A stretch of DNA of 64,000 bases from Bacillota bacterium (GTDB lineage: Bacteria > Bacillota > Limnochordia > DUMW01): positions 29,434 through 93,433 of the forward strand of contig DUMW01000009.1 of NCBI GenBank assembly GCA_012839765.1, read 5' to 3'. Position numbers and translations under genes: made by a program. Shown piece after piece: positions 2,045 through 38,156 of the stretch (positions are counted from its first letter, which is position 1; each line of letters starts with the position of its first letter). Under the pieces are notes generated by a model. That model saw nothing but the letters and a program-made list of their open reading frames with translations, was not told the DNA's origin and searched no databases.

Positions 2045-3310
2045 TTGTTTCAATATTCTGTTTTAGACAATGGCATTCGGGTGGTTACAGAGACAATACC
2101 CCATGTATATTCGGTTTCCATTGGTTTTTGGTTTCGGGTAGGTTCGGCCTATGAACCGGCGGAGTACAGCGGTGCTTTCCATTTCATCGAGCACATGTTG
2201 TTCAAGGGTACGGCTAATCGTTCCGCCCGGGAGATCGCGGAGCTTATTGATTCCACTGGAGGAGAAGTAAATGCCTTCACCGGTCGGGAGTATACCTGTT
2301 ATTATGCCCGGGTTTTCCGGAAACACTTGCCCATTGCTATTGACCTGTTGACCGACATGCTCCTCAATCCCTGCTTTGATGAAGGTGAGTTGCAGAAGGA
2401 GCGGGGAGTCATTATCCAGGAGATCAAGATGTATGAGGATACGCCCGAAGAACTGGTCCACGAATTATTGGTGAACTATCTGTTCGAAGGCCATGGCCTT
2501 GGCCAAAGCATCCTTGGCACGGAAGAATCGGTGCGGGCCTTCGATTCCGACCGGTTACAGAGATTTAAGGAAGACAACTATACTCCCGCAAACCTAGTGG
2601 TGGGGGTGGCGGGTAACGTGGAACACGGGGAAGTGGTGCAGCTTCTGGAAGAGTACTTCTCCCAGTGGACGACAAAGCACCAGAAGACAGAGCTGACAAA
2701 GCCGGGGTATCACCACTTCATGGCCTATAAAGAAAAGGACCTAGAACAGCTGCATCTTTGTCTGGCGGTGCCGGGTTTGACCCGGTATTCCTCCCTGCGC
2801 TATCCAATGTATGTTCTGGATACGGTACTGGGCGGTGGTAACAGTTCCCGCTTATTCCAAAAGCTCAGAGAAGAGCAGGGTTTAGCTTACTCCACCTATT
2901 CCTTCCACAGTAGCTACGCACACGCGGGTTTGTTCGGTGTGTACGCAGGCATTGATGCCGATTCCCTAGAACAGACTTTGGAATTAATCCAGGAAGAGAT
3001 CCACCAACTGATGAAGCACCCCATCTCTCAACTAGAACTGGATCGGGCCAAGGAACAGCTCAAGGGCAACCTGATGCTGGGGCTTGAGAGCACCGCGGCG
3101 CGGATGGGCCGCCTCAGCAAGTCCATTTTATTCGACAAGCCAGTGTCTACGCCGCTACAGATTTGTCAAAGGATCGATGACGTGACTATTGAGGATGTTT
3201 ACCAAGTGAGCAGCCTTCTGTTTAGTCGCCCCGTCAGTGTGGTGGCGGTGGGGAGGAACGCCGCAGGGATTAGGGAGTTTTTTGATCAAGCCGCGATTAT
3301 CGCCTGCTAG
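2045..3310 (+). CDS. mlpA: M16-family zinc peptidase (insulinase-like), MlpA/YmxG orthologue
   Basis: HFIEH (HxxEH inverted zinc-binding motif) and strong similarity in pattern to B. subtilis MlpA (…NAFTGREYTCYYARV…). TTG start at 2045 has a GGGGGAG RBS 9 nt upstream. Position between ylxY-like and ymxH-like genes. Confidence 0.8.
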   Translation: MFQYSVLDNGIRVVTETIPHVYSVSIGFWFRVGSAYEPAEYSGAFHFIEHMLFKGTANRSAREIAELIDSTGGEVNAFTGREYTCYYARVFRKHLPIAIDLLTDMLLNPCFDEGELQKERGVIIQEIKMYEDTPEELVHELLVNYLFEGHGLGQSILGTEESVRAFDSDRLQRFKEDNYTPANLVVGVAGNVEHGEVVQLLEEYFSQWTTKHQKTELTKPGYHHFMAYKEKDLEQLHLCLAVPGLTRYSSLRYPMYVLDTVLGGGNSSRLFQKLREEQGLAYSTYSFHSSYAHAGLFGVYAGIDADSLEQTLELIQEEIHQLMKHPISQLELDRAKEQLKGNLMLGLESTAARMGRLSKSILFDKPVSTPLQICQRIDDVTIEDVYQVSSLLFSRPVSVVAVGRNAAGIREFFDQAAIIAC

Positions 3311-3962
3311 ATTGTTTTTGCGCTAGTTTGAGGGATGTGGTCTGGCTCCACTGCCGTTTGCCAAAATGTGCAAGGCCCTTCGAACTCCTTCTCCCCAGCT
3401 AAGCCTTGCCAGATGATATGCCAGCCCAACCCGAAATATTGATTTGTGGTCTGAAAAGGGCCTGAGACTGTTTTGAACTCCATGGCCACCCATGTGCTTT
3501 GTGGGCTAGGATTCCAGTGTTGTCTGGGGGATCCCTCGGGATTGGGGGAATGCCCTTTTTGCAGGGTGCCAACGGAGTTTTTTCCCGGTATTCCCCAACG
3601 GGATGGCCCCCCTTTGGGTGAATCCTATCCCCTTCTCTTGCTGTCTTGCGCCCATTATTGTTGTCACCCTATCTGCGTGGAGCCGCAGAAGGGCAAGGCG
3701 CCCTTCCTTATTTCCCCTCTAAGCTCAGGGTTTCATAGGACTAGCCACGGTGTTCCTTATCCTGGGCCTGCATGGTACAATATGGATGAGGGGTCCCACG
3801 GATAATTGAAGCTATTCTTGGTCTTTTTGACACTATCTACGGTATGAAGTATATTAGTGATAACCTGGAGCCAGGTCAATGAAGAATGGTCGATTACTGG
3901 TGGTCTTGTCATCTTAGAAGTGGCGTTTTTCTGCCGAGTAGTCTACGGCCGTGAGGTGGTGC

Positions 3963-4994
3963 ATGATGCGAAGGGTGACGCAAAGTGATGTGGCGAAGCG
4001 GGCGGGGGTGTCGCGCAGTACCGTGTCCCTCGTGCTCAATCGCAATTCCGATGTTGTCATTTCGGAAGAAACCCGCAATCGGGTGTTCAATGCAGCCATG
4101 GAACTAGGGTACACACCGAACCTAGCGGCCCAGAAACTAGCCGGTGGACGGAACAATCTGATTGGGGTGTTTATTTATCGGGAGTCTTTTCCCTACGAAC
4201 AGGACAGCTTTTACTATGCTTTCCTTTTGGGGATCGAGCGCCAGGCTTCGGAAGAGGGCTATGATCTGCTCATGTTCACCCGCCACGATCGGCATGGAAA
4301 CCAGAGCATCTACCGCGATGGTGCTAACATTCTGACCATGGTGGACGGTGCTGTCCTCATGGGGGCCGAAACCAATAAGGAGGAAATCAGGGCTGCGGTC
4401 AAAGATGGACATAAGATCGTATATATTGGGCGGCGCAATGTGCCGGACTGTCAGTTGGACTGGGTTTCCAGTGACTATCGCACGGTGAGTGGCGAGGCCA
4501 TGAAGCATCTGTTGGATCTGGGACATCGGCAGATTGGTTACACCGCGCCAGTGGGGGACTATGAGCCGGATCTGGATCGGATCGTCGGTTGTGAGGAGGT
4601 TATTGCGAAAAACCCTGCTGCCCAGATGCACATGATCCCTGTGGAGGTCTGGAATGATCCCAGGGAATTGGCGGCCTTCATTCGGCAGAAGGGACTTACC
4701 GCTTTGATCCTCAGCATGGGCAAGTGTGCTGACCTGGTGGAGAATTTACAGCACGCGGATCTGCGGGTACCCGAGGATCTATCGGTGCTGTCCCTATCGG
4801 ACCAAGAGGTTCCCAATCCCAGTCGGAATTTCTATCCTACCTGTGTCGATCTGAAAAAGACCCTGGTGGGGCAAGAGGCAGTCCGCTTGTTGGTGAAACG
4901 TCTCTCGGGCGAGATAATGACTCCTCAACAGATCTGGATCAGATGTTCTTTGGTGGTGGGAAACACCACCCGTCAGCTAACCTCGGATGAATGA
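3963..4994 (+). CDS. LacI-family transcriptional regulator
   Basis: N-terminal HTH (VTQSDVAKRAGVSRSTVSLVLN) followed by a periplasmic-binding-fold sugar-binding domain. ATG at 3963/3966 is preferred over the GTG at 3951 because a GAGGTGG RBS lies just upstream. Confidence 0.8.
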   Translation: MMRRVTQSDVAKRAGVSRSTVSLVLNRNSDVVISEETRNRVFNAAMELGYTPNLAAQKLAGGRNNLIGVFIYRESFPYEQDSFYYAFLLGIERQASEEGYDLLMFTRHDRHGNQSIYRDGANILTMVDGAVLMGAETNKEEIRAAVKDGHKIVYIGRRNVPDCQLDWVSSDYRTVSGEAMKHLLDLGHRQIGYTAPVGDYEPDLDRIVGCEEVIAKNPAAQMHMIPVEVWNDPRELAAFIRQKGLTALILSMGKCADLVENLQHADLRVPEDLSVLSLSDQEVPNPSRNFYPTCVDLKKTLVGQEAVRLLVKRLSGEIMTPQQIWIRCSLVVGNTTRQLTSDE

Positions 4995-5115: not shown

Positions 5116-5145
5116 ACTTGCTATTGACACGCGTTAGTAACCAGT
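5116..5145 (+). promoter_or_regulatory. Candidate sigma-A promoter (TTGACA, 18 nt spacer, TATAAT) upstream of the FAD-oxidoreductase gene
   Basis: Perfect -35 TTGACA (5116-5121) and perfect -10 TATAAT (5140-5145) with an 18 nt spacer. Flanked by a direct repeat CGCGTTAGTA (possible operator). Confidence 0.45.
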
Positions 5146-5348
5146 AGTATAATGAAAACAACAGTTGGTAACTCGCGTTAGTAGTTGAAGTTCTTTACAT
5201 AGATAGTTCTGGTGTAGATGTGAGCTGTCCAGTGACTCTCAGGATCCATTAGTCACAGGTAGTGGCGAGAGCTTCCATCATCGGTATGTTGCACCAGGAT
5301 TTGTCGGTGTGATCGTAAATCATTGTCATTACGAAGGAAGGAAGATGT

Positions 5349-6680
5349 GTGGTGTCTGATCGGGTCCTCACCTATGAGCGAAGCATACCAGTACGGCACA
5401 GTGTGGACGTGCTGGTGGCGGGCGGTGGTCCGGCGGGGGTAGCTGCCGCAGTGGCGGCAGCGCGGCAAGGGCGGCGTGTGTTTTTGGTCGAAGAGCAGGC
5501 CTGTCTTGGTGGGATGGGTACCGCTGGATTAGTGCCCGCCTTTATGATGTTTTCCGATGGAGTGAACTTCCTCGCCGCCGGCATCGGGGAGGAGGTCTTA
5601 ACCCGGCTGCGGGAGAATGGCGGTACGGGCCCGGACAATGCCTTTTCCATCCGGGCGGAGGTATTGAAACGGGTATATGATGATATGCTCTTGGAAGCAG
5701 GGGTGGAGTTTCTCTTTCACACGAAGTTGATCGATGTACGGAAAGAGGGAAGGAAGGTTTGTTACGCTATCCTCGCGGCGAAAAGCGGCTTGTTTGCCAT
5801 TGAGGCTAAGGTCTTTGTGGACGGCACCGGTGATGGGGATCTCGCGGTTTTGGCTGGAGCGGAATACCTAAAGGGTGATGAAGAGGGGCATATGCAGCCG
5901 GGGACCTTGTGCAGCCTCTGGGCGGATATCGACTGGTCCCGGGTGAAGCCTCCCGATGATCGGATGCTGGAACAGGCCTTCAAGGATCGGGTGTTTACGT
6001 ATGAGGATCGGCACTTGCCCGGGATGTGGCGGGTGGGCCAAAGCCTCGGCGGCGGCAATATCGGTCACATCTTCGGTGTCGATGGTACCGACGAGCGTTC
6101 CCTCACGGCCGCGCTCATTCAAGGGCGGAAACTGCTCGATGAGTATGAAAGGTATTATAAAGAATACTTGGATGGATATGAGAGAATGGAACTTGCGGCC
6201 ACCGGTGCCCTCATGGGTATTCGGGAAAGCCGACGGATCGTGGGGGACTATGAGCTGTGTCTGGCGGACTTCCATAGGCGGGCCGTGTTTCCCGATGAGA
6301 TTGGCCGGTATTGCTATCCCGTCGATATCCATGCTTCAACGCCTACCGATGAACACTACGAAAGATATGCCACAGATTTCCATAAATTGCGCTACGCAAA
6401 GGGAGAAAGCTACGGTATACCTTACCGTTGCCTGACGCCCAAGGGACTGGACAATGTATTGGTGGCGGGCCGTTCCATTAGTTCGGATCGCTTTCTCCAA
6501 GGGTCTGTGCGAGTCATGCCCGGCTGCTACATCACCGGTCAGGCTGCAGGGATAGCGGCAGCCATTGCGGCGGAACGAGATTGTTCGGTGAGAGATTTTC
6601 CCATTGCTGAACTGCAGCGTCGACTCAAGGACTTGGGCGCGTATCTGCCTAACTTTGATGATAAAGAGGAAGCTGTGTAA
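5349..6680 (+). CDS. FAD-dependent oxidoreductase (FAD_oxidored / GlcNAc-associated type, Rossmann GxGxxG)
   Basis: The N-terminus has a VLVAGGGPAGVAAAVAAARQG dinucleotide-binding motif. Length ~440 aa. GTG start with an AGGAAGGAAG RBS. Confidence 0.7.
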   Translation: MVSDRVLTYERSIPVRHSVDVLVAGGGPAGVAAAVAAARQGRRVFLVEEQACLGGMGTAGLVPAFMMFSDGVNFLAAGIGEEVLTRLRENGGTGPDNAFSIRAEVLKRVYDDMLLEAGVEFLFHTKLIDVRKEGRKVCYAILAAKSGLFAIEAKVFVDGTGDGDLAVLAGAEYLKGDEEGHMQPGTLCSLWADIDWSRVKPPDDRMLEQAFKDRVFTYEDRHLPGMWRVGQSLGGGNIGHIFGVDGTDERSLTAALIQGRKLLDEYERYYKEYLDGYERMELAATGALMGIRESRRIVGDYELCLADFHRRAVFPDEIGRYCYPVDIHASTPTDEHYERYATDFHKLRYAKGESYGIPYRCLTPKGLDNVLVAGRSISSDRFLQGSVRVMPGCYITGQAAGIAAAIAAERDCSVRDFPIAELQRRLKDLGAYLPNFDDKEEAV

Positions 6681-6808
6681 ACTAATGTTTTCAAGGAAGG
6701 ACGGGTGCCAGGAGGTGGTAGGGGAAAGGAAATCCATCGGCTAGGTGTGTTTCCCTCGCCCAATTCGCAGGCGGGCAAAGACTAGGAGTAAAGGTGGCAG
6801 AATGCTTT

Positions 6809-8530
6809 ATGAAGACTGTCTATTTGTTGGTCATGATAATGGTATTGCTTGTAATCCTACTGCCTAGTTGTGTTTCGGTGGCCTATGTCCCTGAACTACC
6901 TTTCCAAACCGTAGAGGTGATAGTTCCTGATCCGGTTTATGTGGCCCGGCCCGGTGAAATGGTGACCGTGGAAGTGGTAGTGCGCTTTCGTGAGCGGCAA
7001 GAGGGCAGCGTGGTGCTCTTCGAGTATGAAGTGGTGGATCGAAAGGGAAACGTCATCAATACGCAGCAATATGAAACGAACGTGGTTTTGCGGACCGGCG
7101 CTGTGTTGCGGGCAGAAGTGGCTATCCCCGAGGACTATGACCAAAGATGGATCGGCGTGCAATTGGTCAAGTGTAAGGTCAACAACGAGGAAATGCCCTT
7201 CCGGGATCAGCCGCCCTTTGGCCTTGCGGTTAAACAGGATGGTCCTATGTACCCCGAAGGGGCCTTGGGAAACATCCTTGGTGTGAACCAGCACTATACC
7301 CAAGGTATGAGTCATGAATACTTGAGATTGCTTACGGAGTTGGGTGTGAAATGGGCCCGGGACAACGTCTCATGGGCGCTCATCGAACAGACCCCGGGGG
7401 TCTATGAGTTTCCCGAGGCCTTTGAAAAGCGGTTGCGTTTCTATGAGGAAAACGACATTGCCCTTTCCTTTACCTTGTTTGGACCGAACCGGACCGCTTA
7501 TCCGGACGATCCATACAATCCCGAAGCCTACGGGCGTTTCGCTGCGGAAGTGGCCCGCAAGCTCAGCGAGGACTATGACCTCGAATTCATCCTGATCCTC
7601 TGGAACGAGCCGAATAACTTCGGTTTCCGCCAGGATTTTGGTGGTCAGTGGTACGGTGCACCGCCTTCCCCCTGGGTGGAAGAGTACGTGAAGGTGGCCA
7701 ATGCGGGAGCCAAGGCGATCCACGCCTATGACCCCTCCATTCTTACCTTTACCAACAGTGACGTTATTACCAACCACTATTGGTTCATTGATAAGGGTTT
7801 GGCGCCTGAGATTAAGGGCTTTTCCATTCACCCTTACGGAAGTAAGGCGGGACATCCGGAGATTCAGGGGTATGGGAATAATCAACCGTGGATCTTTCCC
7901 TTCCGGGTGATGGATGATGATCAGTCCACCCGGTCCATGTTCCTGCGTTTGCGGGATGCCTACGCGGAAGAACTGGGCCATACCCCGGAGATGGTAGTTA
8001 CCGAATTCGGCCGTCTCATCGAAGGGGTCTGGGAACCGGGTCAAGCGCCCTTTGCGGAAAATGCGGAGCATCTAGTGGCGGAGGAATTACCCCGTTTCTT
8101 CATCCTCATGGCTAGCCTAGGGGTGAAGAGTGCCCAGTGGTTCACCCTGGCCGATTGGCGGTCGGAACGGGGACACGGGCTGGTGTTCGAGGACGGACAG
8201 CGACGCCTTACCTTTACCGCCTATAAGACCCTTAGTCTGGAACTGGGCCACTACCGTTTGGTGGAGCAGATTGCGGGAGCCGACAGTCCCTTTGGTGTGC
8301 AGGCCTACCTCTTTGAAGGTTCCGACGGATATAAATTGGCCATCTGGGATACCCGCGGTACTTCAAAGGTCTTAATTACCCGAGATAGCACTGACCCGGT
8401 CAGGATTGTAACCCACCTTGGGGAAGAACTACCCGTTTACCATGAAGGCGAGGTTCTAGAGGTGGACATTGGCCGTGGTCCCCTTTACATCTCTGGAGTG
8501 GGGTCGGGATGCCAAGTCCAGATTCCCTAG
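6809..8530 (+). CDS. Glycoside hydrolase, clan GH-A (GH5/GH39-like (beta/alpha)8 fold), with N-terminal signal/anchor
   Basis: The ILWNEPN motif is the clan GH-A acid/base NEP motif. The VVTEFG motif is the nucleophile motif. N-terminal hydrophobic segment MKTVYLLVMIMVLLVILL. An alternative GTG start lies at 6794. Paralogue of the 12334..13974 gene. Confidence 0.65.
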   Translation: MKTVYLLVMIMVLLVILLPSCVSVAYVPELPFQTVEVIVPDPVYVARPGEMVTVEVVVRFRERQEGSVVLFEYEVVDRKGNVINTQQYETNVVLRTGAVLRAEVAIPEDYDQRWIGVQLVKCKVNNEEMPFRDQPPFGLAVKQDGPMYPEGALGNILGVNQHYTQGMSHEYLRLLTELGVKWARDNVSWALIEQTPGVYEFPEAFEKRLRFYEENDIALSFTLFGPNRTAYPDDPYNPEAYGRFAAEVARKLSEDYDLEFILILWNEPNNFGFRQDFGGQWYGAPPSPWVEEYVKVANAGAKAIHAYDPSILTFTNSDVITNHYWFIDKGLAPEIKGFSIHPYGSKAGHPEIQGYGNNQPWIFPFRVMDDDQSTRSMFLRLRDAYAEELGHTPEMVVTEFGRLIEGVWEPGQAPFAENAEHLVAEELPRFFILMASLGVKSAQWFTLADWRSERGHGLVFEDGQRRLTFTAYKTLSLELGHYRLVEQIAGADSPFGVQAYLFEGSDGYKLAIWDTRGTSKVLITRDSTDPVRIVTHLGEELPVYHEGEVLEVDIGRGPLYISGVGSGCQVQIP

Positions 8531-8683
8531 TGATCACATGAAAGTTTAAGAACGTTGTATTGGACCTTCGTACGAAATTTGAAGCCTTCCCAACGACAGG
8601 AAGAACCACTTCGGAACAGAAGGACGGTGGTGTTTGAAACTTGATTCTTCTAAAAGATTACATTTTATAAGGAGGTCTAGACA

Positions 8684-9976
8684 ATGTTTAAGAAAACTCT
8701 GTTGATCGGACTAATGCTAAGTTTTATCGTCGGTGCCGGTGTGGTGCAAGCTACTGAGAAGATCCATTTGACCATCTGGAGTGACTGGAGTGGAAATATT
8801 CCGATTTTCCAGGAATTGATGAATATCTACATGGAACGGAACCCCCATGTGGAGATCACTTGGGAGTGGTCCTTCGGAGATCACGACAAACTAGTGATGT
8901 CCGTCATTTCCGGCACAGGCCCGGATATTGTTTGCTACGGTTTAGTGCCGGAGCTTATCGAGGATGGCATGTTTGAGCCCTTGGACAAATACTTGGCCAA
9001 CAGTGTGTTAATGGAAGACATTCCTCCCAACCTGTGGCCGAAGACCCAGTGGAAGGGCCAGACCTACGGTGTGCCCGCGATTGAGGGAGGTCCTGGTTGG
9101 GGTCTTTTCTACAACAAGGATCGCTTTGGGCGGGCTGCTTTGCCCACACCGGGTCCCGATGAGGTATTGAGCATCGATGACTTCTTGGCTCTCCACGCTA
9201 AACTGAGCAACGTGGGTCCCGATGGAGTCGTCACCGAGCTGGGGTTCTATCCGCCGGAGACCAATGGCCACCACTACACCCGTTGGGAAGCCTTCTACAA
9301 TGTCAAGGCGGTGGATCTGGTGAACGGCAAGGCTCAGCTGGATCATCCAAGGATGCTAGCTGCTGCGGAAACCCTGATGCGGATCTATGAGATCGGCGGT
9401 GGGCGGCAGGCCATGCTGGAGTTTGTAGGGTCTTCGTCCCTATGGCCCAGCATGCAGTCTCTGTTTGTGACCGGTAAGACGGCGATGATGCATGCCGGGT
9501 ATTGGGCCGTGTCCTCCCTGGAGAGCGGGGGTATGAGCGTGGATGATTACGGCGTGACCTGGTCCCCGAATATCGATGGGCTGAAGGTGCAGAACTACAG
9601 CGGTTGGCAGCTGCTCATCTTGTCCAATTGCGCCCACAAAGAAGAGGCCTTTAAGGTTGTGGAGTTTATCGCCTCCGGCGAAGGGCAGGCTTACATTTTT
9701 GAGAAGCTAAGCTGGCTTGGCGGCATGCCCCGTAGTCTCTTTGATTATGTGGATGTCTACGCCAATCCGCAGATTGCCTGGTTCTTGAACTCTATGTTCA
9801 CCGCAGACAATACCTCAGGTGTGGCGGATCTGCCCAATCCCTACTACAACCTTACGGCCCAGTTGTGGCAGGATGCCTTCTTAAAGATAACCAGCGGAGA
9901 GCAAAGTCCGGTGCAGGCTTTACAGGAGGCCAACCGGTTGTTGCAGTTGGAAATTGATGCTACTTGGGAAAAGTGA
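8684..9976 (+). CDS. ABC transporter extracellular solute-binding protein, family 1 (sugar-binding); no cognate permease genes adjacent
   Basis: ~430 aa with an N-terminal signal peptide (no lipobox Cys). Family-1 SBP-like sequence pattern. Strong RBS AAGGAGG before the ATG. Confidence 0.7.
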   Translation: MFKKTLLIGLMLSFIVGAGVVQATEKIHLTIWSDWSGNIPIFQELMNIYMERNPHVEITWEWSFGDHDKLVMSVISGTGPDIVCYGLVPELIEDGMFEPLDKYLANSVLMEDIPPNLWPKTQWKGQTYGVPAIEGGPGWGLFYNKDRFGRAALPTPGPDEVLSIDDFLALHAKLSNVGPDGVVTELGFYPPETNGHHYTRWEAFYNVKAVDLVNGKAQLDHPRMLAAAETLMRIYEIGGGRQAMLEFVGSSSLWPSMQSLFVTGKTAMMHAGYWAVSSLESGGMSVDDYGVTWSPNIDGLKVQNYSGWQLLILSNCAHKEEAFKVVEFIASGEGQAYIFEKLSWLGGMPRSLFDYVDVYANPQIAWFLNSMFTADNTSGVADLPNPYYNLTAQLWQDAFLKITSGEQSPVQALQEANRLLQLEIDATWEK

Positions 9977-10047
9977 GTTCCGATTGACCTAAGCAGGTTA
10001 ACAGACTCCGAGGAGTCTGTACTGGATAAACCAATAATCGAAGGGAG

Positions 10048-10605
10048 TTGTTGTTGTTGAAGAAGGGTTTAGCGGTGGTAATGGCGGTGTTGTTCCTCGC
10101 GATGGGCAGTGTGGCTTTCGCCTACGACTTTGAGGCGAAGAACAATGTCCTTGGGCCCCACAATGCCTATCACAAGCAGATTAAAATCGAAGCGGACTCC
10201 ACATTTGCCATGGGTTTGGGACCGGAAAACCTGATCGACGGAGACTATAACACCCGTTGGGTCAGTGCGCACTTCAATACGGGACCCAAACCTGGGGAAG
10301 AGTACGTCAGCTGGATCATTGTGGAGCTGCCCCATGCTGAGCGGGTTACCGCCCTGCGGTTCCACACTGGGCTTTCAGGCTACGGCGCTGGTGACCCCAA
10401 TATGATCATCCACTCCTTTGCCTTGGAGTATTGGGACGGCAATGCCTGGCAGGAAGTGGTGGTCATCGAAGGCAATACAGAGAAGGTGGCGGAGGCCGTC
10501 TTCGAGCCGGTGGAAGCCAGCCGGTGGCGTATCCGGGTAATCAATCCCAGCCGGTATGACTGGAGTGTCCGGGCTTACGAGCTGGAGTTGTTCCGGGCTA
10601 ATTGA
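10048..10605 (+). CDS. Small secreted F5/8 type C (discoidin) domain protein
   Basis: Signal peptide (…SVAFA) then NLIDGDYNTRWVS and a terminal …YELELFR, both characteristic of discoidin/F5-8-C domains. Paralogues lie at 10687, 62547 and 63266. Start is TTG (10048-10054) after an AAGGGAG RBS. Confidence 0.7.
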   Translation: MLLLKKGLAVVMAVLFLAMGSVAFAYDFEAKNNVLGPHNAYHKQIKIEADSTFAMGLGPENLIDGDYNTRWVSAHFNTGPKPGEEYVSWIIVELPHAERVTALRFHTGLSGYGAGDPNMIIHSFALEYWDGNAWQEVVVIEGNTEKVAEAVFEPVEASRWRIRVINPSRYDWSVRAYELELFRAN

Positions 10606-10686
10606 GGTTATCACGACTAGTAGTCGCCCACGGCGGCTACTAGTCGTCCCATCTAGAACATAAGCGAGTGGAGGGGGTTACGGTCC

Positions 10687-11256
10687 ATGAAAAGGAACTT
10701 GGTACTGGCTCTAACTTTGTTGTTGCTTGTTAGCGGCTGTATTCTGAGTTCAACTGATCCTGAACCTGACCCAAGTCCTTTGGAGCCTGCGGACAACATC
10801 CTTGGTCCCCACAATCCTTACCACGGGCAGATCATCATCGAAGCCGATTCGGTACTCAATGAGAGAACGGGACCCGAAAACCTTATCGATGGCGATCTGA
10901 ATACCCGTTGGGTGACGGCCCATTTAAACACCGGACCGCAGGAAGGGGAGCCCTACTTGACCTGGGTGACCATCAAGTTGCCCCATCCGGAGAAGGTGCA
11001 CGCCTTAGTGTTCTACACCGGAGTTGCAGAGAGTGGTGCCGGCGACCCCAATATGATCGTCAGGAGCTTCGCGTTAGACTATCGTGATGGAGACACTTGG
11101 CGTGAAGCTTGCTCTGTGGAACTGAACTCAGAACGAAGATGTGAAGTGCGTTTTAAGGCAGTGGAGGCCCAGGAATGGCGTCTGCGGATCACTGATCCTG
11201 GACGATATGATTGGAGTGTCCGGGCCTTTGAGCTAGAGCTGTATCGACAGAAATAG
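10687..11256 (+). CDS. Small F5/8 type C (discoidin) domain lipoprotein
   Basis: Lipobox LLVSGC. Same domain as the 10048 gene (NLIDGDLNTRWVT … FELELYR). Confidence 0.7.
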   Translation: MKRNLVLALTLLLLVSGCILSSTDPEPDPSPLEPADNILGPHNPYHGQIIIEADSVLNERTGPENLIDGDLNTRWVTAHLNTGPQEGEPYLTWVTIKLPHPEKVHALVFYTGVAESGAGDPNMIVRSFALDYRDGDTWREACSVELNSERRCEVRFKAVEAQEWRLRITDPGRYDWSVRAFELELYRQK

Positions 11257-11378
11257 GGGATGGAGGCAACCGGTTGACGGCCCTGTGCAGGCAACCGGTT
11301 GCGCGTTGGAGAACGGTTGAGAAAGGACCTGATAGGGAAAGGATAAGGCTTGTGAGTGTTGTCTATCTTTCGACTGTC

Positions 11379-12242
11379 ATGGTGTTAATCATATTGTTAT
11401 CGGGGGTAGGATGTGCCAGCATGGTGAGCGGAACGGGAGAGGTGGCGAAAATGCCGGAGCGGATTGTGGCGGTAGGCAAGGGTACGGTTAGTCTGCTCCA
11501 GGCCTTGGAAATCCCAGTGGTGGGCAGTTGGACCGGTTCTTTACCAACGGGGTTGCCGGTAATGGTGGCGGGGTACGGCGTCGATGACTTGGATTCAGCA
11601 CAGATTGCTGCTCTAAAGCCGGATCTTGTCCTCGCTCCCTCAGCCTACAAAGGGGTCTTGGCTGAAGTATCGGCCCAGTACGGTTTCACAGTACAGTACC
11701 TGGATCTGGAAAACTTTCAGGATACCCTTAACAGCTTGGAACGCCTGGGTGTACTGTTGGGGAAGGAAGGGAAAGCCCAAGAGTTGATCGAAGGCATTGA
11801 GCGGCGGGAAGCCCGGTTACAACGGGCAATTCAGGGTTTGGCCCGGCCGAAGACATTGATCATGGTCTTTGCCGGAGGGGAGTGGTTTGTGGCCACACCG
11901 GATTCCTACATTGGCCGCTTGGCCTTGGTACTTCATATCCAGCCGGTGGTGCTAGGCAGGGAGGGACAACCCTTTGTGCCCTTGGCGTTGGCGGAACTGA
12001 GTAGTACGCCGGAGGTGGTTTTGGCCGTGGGCCTAGATGAAGGTCTCAGGCATGGGCAGTTGCGGGAAAAAATGCTCGCTGATACGCAACTGGCTTCCTG
12101 GGAGGCGGTCAAGGAAGGTCAAGTCTTCGAATTGCCCGCCAATCTGTTTATTGTCCATCCCGGTATGGAGGCCATTGATGGCTTGGAGCTGTTGGGGCAA
12201 TATCTGTATCCCCAGGCCGATTGGCGCTTCCTTTACTACTGA
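11379..12242 (+). CDS. Periplasmic-binding-protein (FecB/BtuF/TroA-like) ABC substrate-binding lipoprotein; orphan, with no permease or ATPase nearby
   Basis: Lipobox LLSGVGCAS. The sequence follows the class-III (helical-backbone) metal/siderophore/cobalamin binding-protein pattern. Start is ATG 11379; an alternative GTG lies at 11355 after a GGATAAGG RBS. Confidence 0.55.
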   Translation: MVLIILLSGVGCASMVSGTGEVAKMPERIVAVGKGTVSLLQALEIPVVGSWTGSLPTGLPVMVAGYGVDDLDSAQIAALKPDLVLAPSAYKGVLAEVSAQYGFTVQYLDLENFQDTLNSLERLGVLLGKEGKAQELIEGIERREARLQRAIQGLARPKTLIMVFAGGEWFVATPDSYIGRLALVLHIQPVVLGREGQPFVPLALAELSSTPEVVLAVGLDEGLRHGQLREKMLADTQLASWEAVKEGQVFELPANLFIVHPGMEAIDGLELLGQYLYPQADWRFLYY

Positions 12243-12333
12243 AGATCAGCCCCGACAAGAGTACTTTTCTGTGGAAACATCCTGCTTGGGCTCCCCTTTT
12301 GGTGAACCCAAGAATCCGAAGGAGTGTTTGAGC

Positions 12334-13974
12334 GTGTCTGCAAGCTTGTTTGAGGAGATCAAGATGTGTGTCCCGGGGCCCACCGATACCGTAAAGCCAG
12401 GGGAAAGGGTGGCTGTGGGGCTGAGTTTCTCCCTGGGCGAAGGGGTGGAATCAACGGGGGACGTGACCTACGAGGTAGTAACCCGGGAAGGCCAGGTCCT
12501 TGATTCCGGCAGTGGCCCCTTGACCAAAGAAGGCGACAGCGCCACTATGGAGCTGACGATCCAGGTACCGGAGGGATTCCAGGGCCGGTGGTTAGGCATC
12601 CAGCTGCGGACCTATGCCGATGCGAACGGGTTAGTGGACTTGACGGGGTATCCGCCCTTGGGAATTACGGTGTGGCAAGGGGGTTCCGTGTATCCGGCAG
12701 GGGCTCTGGGTAATATCCTGGGTGTGAATCAGCACTATACCCAGGGGATGAGCCACGAATACCTGCGGTTACTCACCGAACTTGGAGTCAAGTGGGCCCG
12801 GGACAATGTCTCTTGGGCGATTATTGAACAGACCCCGGGGAACTATGTCTTTCCTGCTGCCTTTGAGGAACGGTTGCGTTTTTACGAAAAGAACAACCTG
12901 GCTTTGTCCTTTACCTTGTTTGGACCCAATGCTGAGGCATATCCCGACGATCCCTACGATGAAGAGGCCTATGGCCGGTTCTGCGCTGCCGTGGCCCGCA
13001 AGCTGCGGGAAGAGTATGATTTGGAATTCATCCTAATCCTTTGGAACGAGCCCAACAACTTTGGTTTTCGCCGGGATTTCGGCGGCCAGTGGTACGGAGC
13101 GCCCCCTTCCCCTTGGGTGGAGAAATATGTACGCATGGCCAACGCTGGGGCGAAAGCGATCCACCAGTACGACCCCTCGATCTTGACCTTCACCAACAGC
13201 GATGTGATTAGCAACCATTATTGGTTTATGGAACAGGGTTTAGCACCGGAGATCAAGGGGTTTGCCATCCATCCATACGGTGCCAAGGCCGGATATCCCG
13301 AGGTCCAGCACTACGACAATAACGTCCCCTGGGTGCGGCCTTTTACGGTGATGGATGCGGATCAATCTACCCGTTCCCTGTTCCTGCGCCTAAAGGAGGC
13401 TTACACCGCCGCCTTGGGCCATCCGCCGGTCATGGTAATCACCGAATACGGACGATTGATCGAAGGGGTTTGGAAGGAGGAGGAAGCTCCCTTCCCCCAG
13501 GTTCGGGAAGAGGTGGTGGCCGCGGAATTGCCTCGGTTTTACATTGCTATGCACAGCATCGGTGTAGAGTCTCTGCAATGGTTCACCCTAGCGGACTGGC
13601 GCCATGAAAGGGGACACGGGCTGGTATATGCCGATGGACGCCGGCGGCAAACCTTTACCGCCTTTAAGACTTTGAGTCTGGAGTTGGGAGAATACTCCTT
13701 CCTCCGACAGGTGGCCGGGAAAGAGACCCCCACCAAGGGGCTGCAGGCCTATCTCTTTAAAGGGTCCGCGGGCTATAAGTTAGCTTTGTGGAACATCGAA
13801 GGACCGATCCCGGTGACCATCATGCGGGATCATACCGGACCGGTGCGGGTGGTCAGTCACTTGGGCGAAGAGCTCTCCGTTGCGGTGGAAGACCAGGTGA
13901 TCGGGTTGGAGGTGGGACCGGCACCGGTCTATATCAGTGGTGTGGGAGCGGGAGTGGTCCTTTCCGTTGGGTAG
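12334..13974 (+). CDS. Glycoside hydrolase, clan GH-A, paralogue of 6809..8530 lacking an N-terminal signal peptide
   Basis: Shares long near-identical stretches with the 6809 gene (GNILGVNQHYTQGMSHEYLRLLTELGVKWARDNVSWA…ILWNEPNNFGF…ITEYG). The GTG at 12334 has an AAGGAG RBS. The upstream part of the six-frame ORF overlaps the previous gene and was rejected. Confidence 0.6.
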   Translation: MSASLFEEIKMCVPGPTDTVKPGERVAVGLSFSLGEGVESTGDVTYEVVTREGQVLDSGSGPLTKEGDSATMELTIQVPEGFQGRWLGIQLRTYADANGLVDLTGYPPLGITVWQGGSVYPAGALGNILGVNQHYTQGMSHEYLRLLTELGVKWARDNVSWAIIEQTPGNYVFPAAFEERLRFYEKNNLALSFTLFGPNAEAYPDDPYDEEAYGRFCAAVARKLREEYDLEFILILWNEPNNFGFRRDFGGQWYGAPPSPWVEKYVRMANAGAKAIHQYDPSILTFTNSDVISNHYWFMEQGLAPEIKGFAIHPYGAKAGYPEVQHYDNNVPWVRPFTVMDADQSTRSLFLRLKEAYTAALGHPPVMVITEYGRLIEGVWKEEEAPFPQVREEVVAAELPRFYIAMHSIGVESLQWFTLADWRHERGHGLVYADGRRRQTFTAFKTLSLELGEYSFLRQVAGKETPTKGLQAYLFKGSAGYKLALWNIEGPIPVTIMRDHTGPVRVVSHLGEELSVAVEDQVIGLEVGPAPVYISGVGAGVVLSVG

Positions 13975-14037
13975 AAGGGCCCTCGGTCAACTTCCGGCCT
14001 AAAGGGTAGTGGATAAATGTAGCAAAGGCAAATCGGT

Positions 14038-14080
14038 ATGGCGAGTAGCTGCCATGCCGATTTGCTTTATGGGATACAGA
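14038..14080 (+). terminator. Intrinsic terminator after the GH-A paralogue
   Basis: 15 bp stem GCAAATCGGTATGGC / GCCATGCCGATTTGC with a 9 nt loop, followed by TTTAT. Confidence 0.55.
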
Positions 14081-14202
14081 AGATGGTGCTTCTTGGTAGG
14101 ACTGACATGGGGTTGGTGTCGAATTAGTTAAATAGCGAAATAAACAAGACCGGTCAGAACTTGCTAGACGATAATACTGAGAGGATGGGAGGCTGAGTTA
14201 TC

Positions 14203-16809
14203 TTGCCTAGACAGCAACCACGGATCTTTACCGGTGAAGCTTTGGCACAGATTGCTTTTCCCTTGGGAGGTATCGGGACAGGAACCGTCAGCCTGGGAGG
14301 TCGCGGACAGCTGAAGGATTGGGAGATCCATGACCATCCGGATAAAGGCCGGGTTCAGCGCTTTACCTTTTTCGCCCTGTGGGCCCGACGGCAAGATGAG
14401 ACACCGGTGGCCAAGATCCTGGAACGGAGGATTCTCCCGCCTTATAACTACGGACACGGTGTTCCCCAGGATCAGCTTTCCGGTGTGGGCCGCTTCCAGG
14501 AAGTGGAGTTTACCGGTACATATCCCATTGCGGATCTGAAGTTCATCGACGATGATATGCCGGTGGAGGTGGGCCTGACCGCCTTTAACCCCTTGATTCC
14601 CCACAATGTGCCAGACAGTTCCCTGCCGGTGGGGATCTTCCTGTGGAAAGTGAAAAACCCGCATGTGGTGCCAGTGGAGATTTCATTAGCGGTCAGTGTG
14701 TCCAACTTTATCCCGGCTCCCCAGGAGGACGGCGGCTACGATAGACGGGGTGCCACCAATGAGTATCGCCGGAGCAAAGGAGTACAGGGGCTATTCCTAA
14801 GCAATCCCAGGGGAAAGGACGATGATCCCCAGAACGGAACCATCGCCCTGGCCACCAATTGGGAAAGGGTCAGTGTTACTACCCGCTGGTTCCGATCCGG
14901 CTGGTGGGATGCCAGCCATCTGTTTTGGGATGAATTTTCCGCCCGGGGAACAGTGACAGGACCAACGGATACCGATGGCTCCCCCAGTCCCCAAGGCGAT
15001 GTGTCCAGTATGGTCCTGCATGCTACGTTAAAGCCCGGGGAGGAAGTGGTTTTGCCCGTGGTGTTGGCCTGGCATTTTCCCATCATGAAAAATCCGCCGG
15101 GTTTTGCCGTGGTGGGGGACGAGGAACATCGCATACTGAGAAAATACCTGGCCAAGCAATTTGCCGACGCTTGGGATGCAGTACTATATACTTTCGAGCA
15201 TTTCGACCGCCTAAAGGAAGAAACCTTTAGGTGGCTGGATACCATGTGGAGCAGTACGCTGCCCAGTTGTGTCCTCGATGCCATCACAAGCCAGGTGAGC
15301 ACCCTACGAACCCAAACCTGTTTCCGGCTAGAAGATGGGACCTTCTATGGGTGGGAAGGCTGCTTTGATCAGGTGGGCTCTTGCCATGGAAACTGTGTGC
15401 ATGTTTGGAACTATGAACAGGCCTTAGCCTTCTTGTTCCCCGAATTGGAACGGGACATGCGACGCACAGAATTTCTATACAATACCTGCTCCAAAGGCCA
15501 TATGGGTTTTCGTACCAAGATCCCCCGGGGAATTCAGCACATGGAACATAAACCCTGCGCCGATGGTCAGATGGGTGCTATCATCCAGGCCTATCGGGAT
15601 TGGCAACTGTCCGGTGATGATTCTTTCATCAAAGAATTGTGGCCGAAAATAAAACTGGCCTTAGAGTACGCCTGGACCATCACACCGGACAAGGCGCGGT
15701 CTTTTGATTCGATCTGGGATCCCAACAGGGACGGTGTGATGGAAGGAGACCAGCATAACACCTATGACATTGAATTCTACGGACCAAACCCCATGACCAC
15801 CGTTATGTATCTGGGAGCTTTGCGGGCCTGTGAGGAGATTGCCCGTTATCTAGGGGAGGGGGAGAAGGCCGCGGAGTACCGTAGGATCTATGAACAGGGC
15901 CGCAAACGAGTAGAGGAAGAATTGTGGAACGGCGAGTACTATCGGCAAAAGGTGGAGGTCTTCGAAGGCATAACCATCCCCGAGCGGTTGCTTTCACCGA
16001 AACCCGATGCAGAAGGTAGAATTCTTCCTAAATACCAATTTGGCGATGGATGTCTTTCTGACCAACTATTGGGACAGTTCTGTGCCCATGTGGCGGGTCT
16101 GGGATATTTACTCGATCCGGAAAGGGTAAAAGCCGCTGTGTACGCGGTCTTTCGGTATAACTTCCGGGAAGACTTCCTAGACTTTGCTAATGTGCAACGG
16201 GTTTTCGCCCTTAATAATGAAGGCGGACTGCTTCTTTGCTCTTGGCCCCATGGCGGTCGGCCGGTGATCCCCTTTGTGTATTCCGATGAGGTGTGGACTG
16301 GGATTGAGTATCAGGTGGCGGCTCACTTAATCTACGAGGGACTGGTGGCGGAAGGGATCAGGATCGTGCAGACCCTCCGGAACCGCTACGCGGGATACAA
16401 CCGCAACCCTTGGGATGAGATCGAATGCGGACATCATTACGTGCGGGCCATGGCCAGTTGGTCCTTGCTGTTGGCCCTCTCGGGCTTTACTTACAGTGTC
16501 CCCAAGGGGATCATTGGTTTTGCTCCCCGGTACGCAGAGGATGATTTCCAATGTTTTTGGTCTACCGGTACCGCATGGGGACAGTTCGGTCAGGTTCTGG
16601 GTGAGACTAACAGGGAGTTTTCCCTAGAGGTCATCCATGGTACCTTAAAACTCAACGCCCTTGTTTTGGAGGCCCTTGGTGAAGGTATTTGTCGGGTTTA
16701 CCTGGACGGCGAGGAAATCCCTGCGGTTCTGGTTGGAAAGACTTTACGATTGGAGACGGTGATCACCTTAAATCGCGGCCAAGGGTTGAATGTGGTACAG
16801 ACACAGTAA
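14203..16809 (+). CDS. GH116-family glycosidase (GBA2-type beta-glucosidase/glucosylceramidase-like)
   Basis: N-terminal FPLGGIGTGTVSLGGRGQLKDWEIHD is typical of the GH116 N-domain, followed by a large (alpha/alpha)6-type catalytic region. 868 aa. TTG start with a GGGAGG RBS. Confidence 0.7.
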   Translation: MPRQQPRIFTGEALAQIAFPLGGIGTGTVSLGGRGQLKDWEIHDHPDKGRVQRFTFFALWARRQDETPVAKILERRILPPYNYGHGVPQDQLSGVGRFQEVEFTGTYPIADLKFIDDDMPVEVGLTAFNPLIPHNVPDSSLPVGIFLWKVKNPHVVPVEISLAVSVSNFIPAPQEDGGYDRRGATNEYRRSKGVQGLFLSNPRGKDDDPQNGTIALATNWERVSVTTRWFRSGWWDASHLFWDEFSARGTVTGPTDTDGSPSPQGDVSSMVLHATLKPGEEVVLPVVLAWHFPIMKNPPGFAVVGDEEHRILRKYLAKQFADAWDAVLYTFEHFDRLKEETFRWLDTMWSSTLPSCVLDAITSQVSTLRTQTCFRLEDGTFYGWEGCFDQVGSCHGNCVHVWNYEQALAFLFPELERDMRRTEFLYNTCSKGHMGFRTKIPRGIQHMEHKPCADGQMGAIIQAYRDWQLSGDDSFIKELWPKIKLALEYAWTITPDKARSFDSIWDPNRDGVMEGDQHNTYDIEFYGPNPMTTVMYLGALRACEEIARYLGEGEKAAEYRRIYEQGRKRVEEELWNGEYYRQKVEVFEGITIPERLLSPKPDAEGRILPKYQFGDGCLSDQLLGQFCAHVAGLGYLLDPERVKAAVYAVFRYNFREDFLDFANVQRVFALNNEGGLLLCSWPHGGRPVIPFVYSDEVWTGIEYQVAAHLIYEGLVAEGIRIVQTLRNRYAGYNRNPWDEIECGHHYVRAMASWSLLLALSGFTYSVPKGIIGFAPRYAEDDFQCFWSTGTAWGQFGQVLGETNREFSLEVIHGTLKLNALVLEALGEGICRVYLDGEEIPAVLVGKTLRLETVITLNRGQGLNVVQTQ

Positions 16810-23790: not shown

Positions 23791-24669
23791 GTGTCCTTGA
23801 AAAAACTCTGCAGTCTGCTTGTAATCTTAGCCTTATTCACCGGTTGTATTTACATAGCCACCGACGATGGGCCATACAGGATTTCGGGACGGGTGACCGA
23901 TTCTTGGGGTAAGGGGATTGGTGGTGTCGTCATCAAACTAGGTGAGGAATTCGGCGAGGTTGTGACCGATGCCGACGGCCTGTGGTGTGTGGAGGGGCTA
24001 CATGGTGTGGTGAACGTTGTTCCCTTTAAGGAGGAATGGAGTTTCGAGCCGCCCAGTATCACCGTGGTTGCCGAGAATCACGAGGTGGACTTTGTCGGCT
24101 TCCAACATCTCTATTTCACCGACTTTACCACGGACGTATCGATCCACTGGTATTTAAATGGTCCGGAGATCCTCCCCACTGGGATGAGCTTCGACGGAGG
24201 TTGGGGAACTTACCGGTGGGCCCAACTGACCGGTGAGGCCGCTATCCAGGTTTCAGACGTGATCATCGAGGTGGAAGTGGCGGATATCCGTACCGGAAAC
24301 GAGAATGCCTTTGTGGAAATCGCCGGACGGACCGATGATCCTTTGGAAGCGGGTGAACGTACCAGCGGGGTGGCCCTGAGGGTTTACGGCAAGGGTTCCA
24401 CCAATGCGAGAATGGTGCTATACGAGGACGGGGTGGAGATTGGTTCGGTGCAGACGGAACTGTTTCACTGGTAACATGAGACCATTTTTGTGCTGCGGTT
24501 GATGCTATATGGAAATCTTGCCATCGGTACGGTGACCCGTGCCTCCGACGGAGCCAGTTGGGAAGTGCGGGGGACCCTTACCAGTACCCTCGGTCCCGGA
24601 AACGTGAGACTGCAAGGGCGGGCGTACAACGAAGGACCGTTGATCACGAAAGTGGAGGTGAAGCGGTAG
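23791..24669 (+). pseudogene. Lipoprotein with an unassigned ~190 aa beta-sandwich-like domain (family A), interrupted by an in-frame TAA at 24472-24474
   Basis: Lipobox ALFTGC. The sequence is collinear with paralogue 29911..30537 through …VQTELFHW, then TAA, then 65 further in-frame codons that remain homologous to the paralogue (…GPGNVRLQGRAYNEGPLITKVEVKR). Confidence 0.55.
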
Positions 24670-24912
24670 GTCGTTAAGGTACCGTGGTTTCATTCTCTTG
24701 CATTGCGGCATTTCCCTTCTGGAAAGGTACTTCGCAGAGGCCGATACAGGACGCAATGGTATATGTCTTTGTGGAGAATATATCGCCTTGGCCTTTACGG
24801 TTAAGTTGTTGGGGCAGTGGGATTTCGCTTGGAGGGGCTAATCGGGCAACACTATGGGTCCATTGGGGAAGTTGTGGAGTTGAAAAGTCTAGGAAGGCGG
24901 AGGGAATTCCTC

Positions 24913-29816: not shown

Positions 29817-29910
29817 GCTGTAGGTTGATTCTCTATGGCGGTATTGTGGGTCCGAGTATACCGGGAAGGGCTTTATCCGTTTAGTGACTATTATGGAAAG
29901 GAGATTTCCC

Positions 29911-30537
29911 ATGCACCGAGTGGTCCCGTTGGTCATGCTGCTATTAGTGCTTCCTTGCTGGGTTGCGGCGGAAGAACTGATCTACTTCACTGACTTCTCT
30001 AGCGATGTCTCCGCAGATTGGTATTTGAACGGCCCAGAGATTTCCCGCGAGGGTATGAGCTTTGATGGCGGCTGGGGTGTTTACCGGTGGGCTCAACTGA
30101 GGGAAGGGCTTGTGAAACTCAGTGACGTGACGATTGAGGTGGAGGTTGTGGATATCCGCACAGGTAATGAAAACGCCTTCGTGGAGATTGCGGGGAGGAC
30201 CCATGATCCCTTGCTGGCTGGGGAACGGACCAGTGGAGTGGCGGTACGGGTCTTCGGGAAAGGCCCTAGCAATGCAAAGATGGTGCTATATGACAACGGT
30301 GTGGAGATTGCCACCGTGCAGACGGAACTGTTTCATTGGCAGTATGAGAATACCTTTGTCCTGTCTCTGGTGTTGAGTGGTAATAAGGCAATGGCCACGG
30401 TGACCCGACTTCGGGATGGGGCCAGTTGGCAAGTGAGTGGGACTATCACTAAAAGCCTTGGTCCAGGAAATGTGCGTATTCAAGGGCGAGCCTACAACGA
30501 AGGGCCGCTCGTAACCAAAGTGACGGTGAGACAGTAG
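29911..30537 (+). CDS. Secreted protein consisting of the unassigned family-A domain (full-length paralogue of 23791)
   Basis: Signal peptide MHRVVPLVMLLLVLPCWVAAEE, followed by FTDFSSDVSADWYLNGPEISREGMSFDGGWGVYRWAQL…NAFVEIAGRTHDPLLAGERTSGVAVRVFG…. AAGGAG RBS before ATG 29911. Confidence 0.6.
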   Translation: MHRVVPLVMLLLVLPCWVAAEELIYFTDFSSDVSADWYLNGPEISREGMSFDGGWGVYRWAQLREGLVKLSDVTIEVEVVDIRTGNENAFVEIAGRTHDPLLAGERTSGVAVRVFGKGPSNAKMVLYDNGVEIATVQTELFHWQYENTFVLSLVLSGNKAMATVTRLRDGASWQVSGTITKSLGPGNVRIQGRAYNEGPLVTKVTVRQ

Positions 30538-32084: not shown

Positions 32085-32127
32085 TGGCGATAAGAGAATC
32101 GATGGCTTGGACGAAAGGAGACTTCCT

Positions 32128-33069: not shown

Positions 33070-33122
33070 GAGAGAAGGGGAGGGTTTCTCCCCTTCTCTC
33101 TACAGCAGGGGAGGCCGCAGGG

Positions 33123-35294: not shown

Positions 35295-35340
35295 GTTCCT
35301 GAGTTCTCGCGAGTCTGTTGTGAGAAGGGAGGGCGGAGGT

Positions 35341-37925: not shown

Positions 37926-38156
37926 GCCCCGTCGCGCGTAAGGAGCGATGCACGAGAAAGGTGGCACTGCAAAAAGTCTCGTGCCACACGCGATCTCATG
38001 CTGCAGAAGGTTCCAGTAGAGAACTACTGTGGTTTGCTATACGGACTGCCACTCGGGCACAAAGGTGCTGAATCGAAGGACTTGGCAAATCTAGGATTAG
38101 GTGGTAATATACTGATTGTGCCGGAAAGCCTCCTGGATTTTGCAGGAGGTGTCTTC

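Follow-up and report, generated by a model that had tools for sequence, protein, structure and literature searches.

Four free-standing discoidin-domain proteins of an uncultured Bacillota lineage from biogas reactors: exported CBM32-like proteins with a possible role in glycan capture

The 64,000-nucleotide stretch of contig DUMW01000009.1 analysed here (hereafter, the window) comes from a metagenome-assembled genome of an uncultured, spore-forming member of the Firmicutes/Bacillota found in biogas reactors, and it encodes four small exported proteins, D1 to D4, each with a single discoidin domain resembling carbohydrate-binding module family 32 (CBM32). The genes form two tandem pairs. In pair 1, on the forward strand, D1 (10057-10605; TTG start, 182 amino acids [aa]) encodes a secreted protein with a signal-peptidase-I site, and D2 (10687-11256; ATG start, 189 aa) encodes a lipoprotein with a short Pro/Glu/Asp-rich linker before its one domain. 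Pair 2, on the reverse strand, comprises D4 (63266-63835; ATG start, 189 aa), the first to be transcribed, and D3 (62547-63119; GTG start, 190 aa), both encoding single-domain lipoproteins. An earlier note on this DNA had placed four small open reading frames (ORFs) at these positions, where they are indeed found, and had put the length of the first two at about 185 aa; D2 is as listed, but D1 has 182 rather than 185 aa and D4 has 189 rather than 209. The starts of D1, D3 and D4 were corrected using ribosome-binding sites and gene calls in near-identical contigs. Specifically, the listed ORF start of D1 (10048) is three codons too far upstream, D3 has the ribosome-binding site AAGGGGG and a called homologue (P0004) that begins MKQRRC, and D4 has the site GAGGAGG. 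The four proteins correspond to NCBI entries HHV43192/3 and HHV43237/8 from a 101.6-kb contig (D2 is identical to HHV43193.1), and all four already bear the name “discoidin domain-containing protein.” The mature proteins are acidic (pI, the isoelectric point, 4.5-5.1) and have masses of roughly 18-19.5 kDa. Mature D1 and D2 are 58% identical and mature D3 and D4 57%, relative to 39-44% across pairs, indicating that each tandem pair was either duplicated locally after an older split or homogenised within the pair.

D1 to D4 are intact genes. Stop codons lie 27-30 bases before each of the four starts, so no longer reading frame is hidden upstream, and a profile scan of all six reading frames recovered exactly four family members, no further ones in the window, and no frame-shifted catalytic-domain remnants in the DNA flanking D1 to D4. 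Closed frames and an exact count of four together identify these as complete small genes and not as remnants. A deflationary explanation, that they are pseudogenes decayed from multi-domain enzymes, could appeal to the fact that most profile matches in a library of 1.84 billion sequences are large multi-repeat proteins. It is nonetheless effectively refuted, as each gene possesses its own ribosome-binding site, start, signal peptide and stop in addition to the upstream stops, the four share the same length and architecture, and they are kept intact in many independent assemblies.

Export signals were read by inspection of the sequences. D1 has a signal-peptidase-I site of the form A-F-A/Y (AFA/YD, the slash marking the cleavage point) and no N-terminal Cys, and the other three have lipoboxes (LVSG/C in D2, LAG/C in D3 and FSG/C in D4). 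Both signal types reported earlier for the first pair therefore occur, although the lipoproteins across the set number three, not one. D1 would be released outside the cytoplasmic membrane, and D2, D3 and D4 would be lipid-anchored to it.

The discoidin assignment draws on concordant sequence and structural evidence. PF00754 (F5_F8_type_C) is matched above its gathering score by all four proteins, with E-values of 2e-11 to 1e-8 and scores of 35.8-44.5 bits where 28.2 are required (E is 1e-8 for D2, 3.7e-9 for D3 and 2.1e-11 for D4), and D1 and D3 also pass the threshold of PF22633. NCBIfam returned only sub-threshold matches to a “NADase-type glycan-binding domain” for D1 and D2. The motifs NLIDGDxNTRWV and YELELFR, quoted earlier as hallmarks of the pair, are present. 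A profile built from the four proteins matches solved CBM32 modules by sequence, including those of EndoD (2XQX, E 3e-7), ZmpB (7JNB), GH84C (2J1A) and YeCBM32 (2JD9). An AlphaFold2 (AF2) model of D1 from a 10-sequence alignment has confident core strands (pLDDT 72.7, pTM 0.74), and its beta-sandwich superposes on solved CBM32 modules, the Foldseek comparison with 2XQX giving an E-value of 2.8e-10 and a TM-score of 0.77. Pfam, profile matches and model thus agree on a discoidin fold, and with the six-frame scan they bear out the earlier description of a four-member family of free-standing, exported, single-domain discoidin/CBM32-like proteins.

The structural Ca2+ site of CBM32 is conserved whatever the specificity of the module, and is formed by the Asp and Thr side chains of the motif N-x-x-D-x-N-x-x-T together with main-chain ligands (PMC5651945). 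As a sequence pattern, N-x-x-D-G-[DN]-x-x-[TS]-x-W is kept in D1 to D4, the corresponding segment being N-L-I-D-G-D-x-N-T in D1 and D2, N-L-I-D-G-D-H-G-S in D3 and F-L-T-D-G-N-H-N-T in D4. The liganding Asp is invariant in all four, and the second side-chain position is Thr or Ser.

D1 and D2 are embedded in a forward-strand run of genes for carbohydrate catabolism. The gene for a LacI-family regulator (3951-4994; Pfam LacI and Peripla_BP_3) lies upstream of the run, and a sigma-70-type consensus promoter stands on the same strand at 5124-5153 (TTGACA-18-TATAAT, 12 of 12 matches); no other strong promoter-like site precedes the genes at 5349-16809. These genes begin with a flavin adenine dinucleotide (FAD) oxidoreductase (5349-6680; PF12831) and GHa (6794-8530), a 578-aa exported glycosidase candidate resembling glycoside hydrolase (GH) clan GH-A and assigned to no curated family. 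An SBP_bac_1 sugar-binding protein (8684-9976; PF01547, E 9e-27) is encoded directly upstream of D1. A Peripla_BP_2 protein (11274-12242) follows directly after D2 and is itself followed by GHb (12334-13974), a GHa paralogue with 63% identity and no evident signal peptide, and by a GH116 glycosidase (14203-16809; PF12215 and PF04685), the last gene of the run. The spacers flanking D1 and D2 are about 80 nt long and on the same strand, no terminator-like site was found from the sugar-binding protein gene through D1 and D2 to the next gene, and the gene order around pair 1 is identical in an independent 12-kb contig. Judging from this gene order, D1 and D2 are probably co-transcribed with the LacI-associated run.

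Several features of this locus deserve separate mention. A 10-nt direct repeat, CGCGTTAGTA, occurs within the promoter spacer (5130-5139) and again just downstream of the -10 box (5174-5183), with GTTA/TAAC half-sites, and it may serve as an operator for the LacI-family regulator encoded next to it. The 81-nt spacer between D1 and D2 contains a perfect, GC-rich 16-bp hairpin on the forward strand (10613-10647) that lacks a U-tract and folds with -34.8 kcal/mol (z = -3.9; none of 200 shuffles folds as well); the spacer between D4 and D3 holds no significant RNA structure (z = +0.6). The hairpin is likely an intercistronic RNA stabiliser or attenuator. The idea that it is a dispersed repeat was rejected, as no repeated copies occur in the window. 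A smaller, 8-bp hairpin follows the sugar-binding protein gene (10003-10020), and the two hairpins possibly set relative gene expression as RNA stabilisers. The Peripla_BP_2 protein is of the iron-siderophore/haem/B12 type, an odd partner for glycosidases; its best NCBIfam match, to IsdE, is sub-threshold, and its start codon and lipobox are uncertain. Both SBP_bac_1 proteins of the window, the one beside D1 and a second at 30831-32084, are without a lipobox Cys. This is unusual in a Firmicute with a single membrane; the proteins may be soluble, in which case the envelope would have two membranes, or an uncleaved signal may tether them.

The glycosidase candidates of the run are themselves out of the ordinary. 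GHa and GHb (about 550-580 aa) have no sequence match in Pfam, NCBIfam or the PDB, and both carry NEPN and TE[FY]G motifs (TEFG in GHa). In an AF2 model of GHa, of low confidence (pLDDT 59.7), a (beta/alpha)8 pattern lies between an N-terminal and a C-terminal beta-sandwich; the top Foldseek match of this model is the GH39 structure 5JVK (E 4e-19). The family yielded only four 90% clusters in a word search of 5.8 billion proteins. It may represent an unclassified family of clan GH-A, which would arguably be more unusual than the discoidin genes. Of GHa, GHb and GH116, only GHa has a hydrophobic signal at its N-terminus, a division of labour familiar from systems that cleave a glycan outside the cell, take up the products and hydrolyse these inside.

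In searches covering about 15 billion proteins, the D1-D4 family was confined to one species-level lineage. When 1.84 billion cluster representatives were searched exhaustively with the profile, 1432 matches emerged, among which the only close ones (265-320 bits per domain) were the lineage's own four clusters. The next best, at 75 and 72 bits per domain, were two metagenomic proteins, P0103 and P0119, and other matches were large multi-repeat proteins such as P0003 (4383 aa, 17 domains). In word-indexed searches, whether started from D1 by itself or from the four-protein profile, nothing but the lineage's own proteins and one weak match came up. Among 185,579 GTDB species-representative genomes, a single Saprospiraceae domain of 26% identity was found and no other relatives, and in the metagenomes of the Joint Genome Institute (JGI) there was one same-lineage fragment (LSQX01, from biogas), the other matches being generic discoidin domains of 24-28% identity. 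The LSQX assembly that supplied this fragment derives from a biogas reactor (PMC5985405). The partner domains of the nearest multi-domain relatives are M6 peptidase, CBM6, GH141-like, GH5 and GH92 domains; reading a ligand from them was considered and rejected, since they are too diverse.

On this evidence, D1 to D4 can be read as non-catalytic, exported glycan-binding proteins of the CBM32 fold, with pair 1 capturing substrate for the locus in which it lies. We infer carbohydrate binding from homology and gene context, and regard the reading as about an even call. The operon context makes a lectin-like or glycan-capture role, as the earlier note had suggested, plausible for pair 1, which lies inside the LacI-associated run of sugar-binding protein and glycosidase genes and may be regulated together with a matching catabolic system. 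D1 and D2 would capture or retain a poly- or oligosaccharide at the cell surface, and would give GHa, which has no CBM of its own, and the sugar-binding protein access to substrate, acting in cooperation with both as a binding module supplied in trans. Pair 2 would be an independently transcribed paralogous pair, probably for a different glycan and possibly related to the envelope. Exposed aromatic and His residues in the predicted variable loops of D1 (F50, H72, F73, Y83, Y108, Y167 and W169) fit sugar binding; the loops of D3 and D4 hold a different set, which suggests different ligands for the two pairs.

A number of observations weigh against this reading. The canonical CBM32 galactose site, as seen in CpGH89 CBM32-5, is composed of H1392, Y1395 (Tyr or Trp, at +3), R1423, N1428 and F1483 (PMC3313936). 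In an alignment to the canonical binder 2J7M/2J1A, four of these five positions could be aligned (the Phe position could not), and none of the four is conserved across D1 to D4. The His that follows the conserved Trp is replaced by Val in all four proteins (W-V-S for W-H), D1 and D2 carry His and D3 and D4 carry Gly where Tyr or Trp is expected, and the residues aligned with the Arg and the Asn are not conserved. D1 to D4 are therefore not canonical galactose binders, and these positions point to no ligand. In addition, four loops of the D1 model are poorly defined and of low confidence. No ABC permease genes were found in the 64-kb window, and the scanned ORFs include neither permeases nor the corresponding ATPases, though the two SBP_bac_1 proteins (8684-9976 and 30831-32084) head glycan clusters. 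Pair 2, for its part, lies outside any glycan locus, between bacA with a block of division and envelope genes on one side and a Band-7 gene on the other; D4 and D3 form their own unit in that order, with a sigma-70-like site upstream, just beyond the window end. Finally, a contig from a related organism (L005) keeps orthologues of the sugar-binding protein (55%) and of the GH-like gene (44%) in a locus where a GH16-like and a GH38 gene occur but discoidin genes are absent, making the link between D1/D2 and this locus species-specific.

Two further details of the L005 contig were noted. The gene at 1584-2687, situated between the two orthologues in the place that D1 and D2 occupy in the window, encodes a 367-aa protein with no Pfam match in which E-L-D-T-I-E resembles, by eye, a GH16 catalytic signature. 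A 240-aa C-terminal extension of the GH-like protein was considered as a fused discoidin domain, which would have spoken for a fusion or fission event involving D1/D2, and rejected (hhalign probability 0.2%).

The absence of the alignable sugar-site residues speaks for a second explanation, in which the proteins are protein-protein interaction modules, either membrane-tethered scaffolds or chaperones holding GHa or the binding proteins at the surface, or inhibitors of enzymes. CpGH89 CBM32-1 and -6 likewise do not bind sugar, and the same fold is found in IFT25 and APC10. However, the best sequence and structure matches of D1 to D4 are all bacterial CBM32 modules of glycosidases, their closest domain relatives belong to multi-domain glycosidases and lyases (with GH5, GH92, GH141-like and CBM6 partners), and the Ca2+-site motif typical of CBM32 is kept. 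We consider this explanation improbable, and less probable than the adhesion lectins discussed below.

Variation between near-identical contigs adds another dimension. Relative to the window, two such contigs, L001 (99.83% identity) and L009 (99.24%), show 19 and 46 single-nucleotide polymorphisms (SNPs), respectively. D1 and D2 hold 6 of the 19 L001 SNPs in 9% of the aligned length (binomial p = 0.006), and D1 to D4 show 14 replacement and 4 silent changes, relative to 15 and 25 in eleven flanking genes (Fisher p = 0.0096), these being small counts. One position, 15 residues before the conserved Trp, is recurrently polymorphic in D1 (G53D), D2 (R60, with T and S alleles) and D3 (T59N), as judged from alleles in the 90% clusters and in a loop window chosen after seeing the data; neighbouring polymorphisms include T49K in D1 and G57D and A60T in D3. 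Judged by spacing, its counterpart in CpGH89 CBM32-5 is E1376, a residue hydrogen-bonded to galactose O3, and the site falls in a low-confidence loop of the D1 model. That the changes fall in the loop supplying E1376 to the sugar site counts in favour of the glycan-binding reading. Such a pattern may reflect relaxed selection, or diversifying selection, acting on a loop for ligand contact or on the surface.

These replacements enter into the leading alternative, namely that D1 to D4 are envelope or adhesion lectins unrelated to catabolism, which would bind either the wall or exopolysaccharide of the cell itself, or glycans carried by plant particles or other cells, and serve in attachment or biofilm formation, their exposed loops diversifying under pressure from phages or predators. 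Three of the four proteins are lipoproteins, pair 2 adjoins bacA and the division/envelope block rather than glycosidases, replacement changes outnumber silent ones and recur at one loop in three paralogues, and the family is confined to one lineage, all of which would suit such a role. On the other hand, pair 1 lies amid genes for glycan catabolism, the SNPs are few and two flanking genes (Band-7 and methyltransferase) also have a high ratio of replacement to silent changes, and D1 to D4 are without the anchoring or repeat architecture typical of adhesins. Adhesion is an unlikely explanation overall, although it ranks first among the rivals, ahead of protein scaffolds, which in turn precede spore decoration and, last, pseudogene fragments.

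Within the substrate-capture reading, it is tempting to speculate that D1 and D2 are a fast-diversifying, lineage-specific “CBM in trans,” in which a soluble and a lipid-anchored lectin hand a plant or microbial glycan to the hitherto unclassified GH39-like family of GHa/GHb and to a sugar-binding protein that has no transporter genes beside it, and recurrent replacements in one ligand loop tune specificity between strains. The pair would then parallel, in a Firmicute, the surface glycan-binding proteins of Bacteroides, and would use a new type of CBM32 site. So complete a scenario is doubtful, and we put it on a par with the adhesion alternative.

The wider window bears on one more proposal, that of a spore-surface or sporulation-associated lectin. 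Its backbone consists of an M16 peptidase gene, dapB, dpaA, a flavoprotein gene, asd, an aspartokinase gene, dapA, RNase J and a ClpP-family gene, which matches the Bacillus-type spore-former order ymxG, dpaAB, asd, dapG, dapA, rnj, tepA. The earlier note's idea of spore-surface decoration has as its only link the spore-forming nature of the host, whose window includes dpaA and, where dpaB would be expected, a flavoprotein gene; SpoIIP and YIEGIA in a relative's contig may be added. The Sec/lipoprotein signals, however, point to the vegetative or mother-cell membrane and not to coat or exosporium, the promoter-like sites found are of sigma-70 type (sporulation-sigma promoters were not rigorously tested), and no coat or exosporium genes are adjacent. 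A spore role is unsupported and most improbable.

The M16 peptidase gene and the dapB/dpaA cluster are close neighbours in Bacillus-type spore-formers. Here, some 40 kb of glycan genes (3300-44200: two LacI genes, GH116, GH9, GH2 and genes without assigned function) form an insert in the backbone that separates the M16 peptidase gene (2045-3310) from the dapB/dpaA cluster (from 44264), with a uniform GC content of 0.50-0.57. This insert contains a second lineage-specific paralogue family, whose three exported proteins (23791-24474, 24817-26727 and 29884-30537) flank a GH9 cellulase gene and share a domain of 120-180 aa with 48-76% identity; the middle protein includes a calcineurin-like phosphoesterase domain, and the only other match is a weak, sub-threshold one to CarboxypepD_reg. 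Downstream of the second sugar-binding protein gene, four successive genes at 32068-39401 (333, 742, 615 and 467 aa) are without a Pfam match at E<=1e-5, with only a PHP-domain gene intervening and a GH2 gene following.

If D1 to D4 were found to bind a defined glycan, they would provide a new CBM32 specificity and type of binding site, a Firmicute example of binding modules deployed as separate surface proteins, and an aid to annotating the many orphan “discoidin domain-containing” proteins of biomass-degrading communities. Otherwise, they would be a matter of routine annotation already covered by the NCBI name, and GHa/GHb would be the more unusual find.

Comparison with known systems tempers the claim of novelty, and the earlier description of free-standing modules as uncommon was an overstatement: YeCBM32 (2JD9/2JDA) and the Bacteroides SusE-like protein BT2857 are single-domain precedents that have been solved and characterised, P0103 and P0119 are likewise small stand-alone secreted proteins, and an NCBI name exists. 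The CBM32 modules of Streptococcus pneumoniae EndoD (2XQX) and of Clostridium perfringens (2J1A/2J1E, 2V72 and 4A41) have the same beta-sandwich and the same Ca2+ motif, DG[DN]xx[TS]xW. However, they are appended to large glycosidases whereas D1 to D4 are separate genes; identity is only 17-20%, the galactose-site His, Tyr/Trp, Arg and Asn are not conserved, and D1 to D4 have a conserved N-terminal extension, N[IV][LF]xPxNx[YW][HY], that HMMER leaves unaligned to the CBM32 chains compared. The metagenomic proteins P0103 (249 aa) and P0119 (185 aa) are uncharacterised and similarly small, with a signal peptide and one domain, but they are only 28-30% identical to D1 to D4, and P0103, unlike them, includes a Pro/Thr linker and is anchored to the membrane at its C-terminus. 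P0119 adjoins a gene that by eye resembles a beta-helix lyase, a setting that adds to the case for glycan binding; membership of this upstream gene in the GHa family was considered and rejected.

A parallel in architecture is YeCBM32 of Yersinia enterocolitica, which also consists of a single CBM32 domain with an export signal, encoded by its own gene. It has been proposed to retain polygalacturonate near the degrading and transport machinery in the periplasm (PMC7843439, PMC5651945). YeCBM32 is not an orthologue (profile E 0.013, 17% identity), and it is a single-copy protein of a Gram-negative periplasm, whereas D2, D3 and D4 are lipoproteins; a candidate equivalent of its critical uronate-site Trp, W124, occurs in D1 and D2 only, as a Trp in the corresponding C-terminal loop region.

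The surface glycan-binding proteins of Bacteroides are encoded in glycan-utilisation loci and hold substrate at the cell surface. Those of the SusE/SusF-like type (BT2857, 7M1A/7M1B) are, like most of the present family, non-catalytic lipoproteins made of galactose-binding-like beta-sandwiches, but they belong to a different phylum and envelope and are larger and multi-domain, and pair 2 lies outside any glycan locus. As no SusC/SusD-type genes occur in the window, the resemblance is one of functional analogy. Taken as a whole, free-standing CBM32/discoidin proteins, their NCBI annotation and their simple architecture are known already; what is new is a lineage-restricted four-gene family with a non-canonical binding site, associated with an unclassified GH39-like family.

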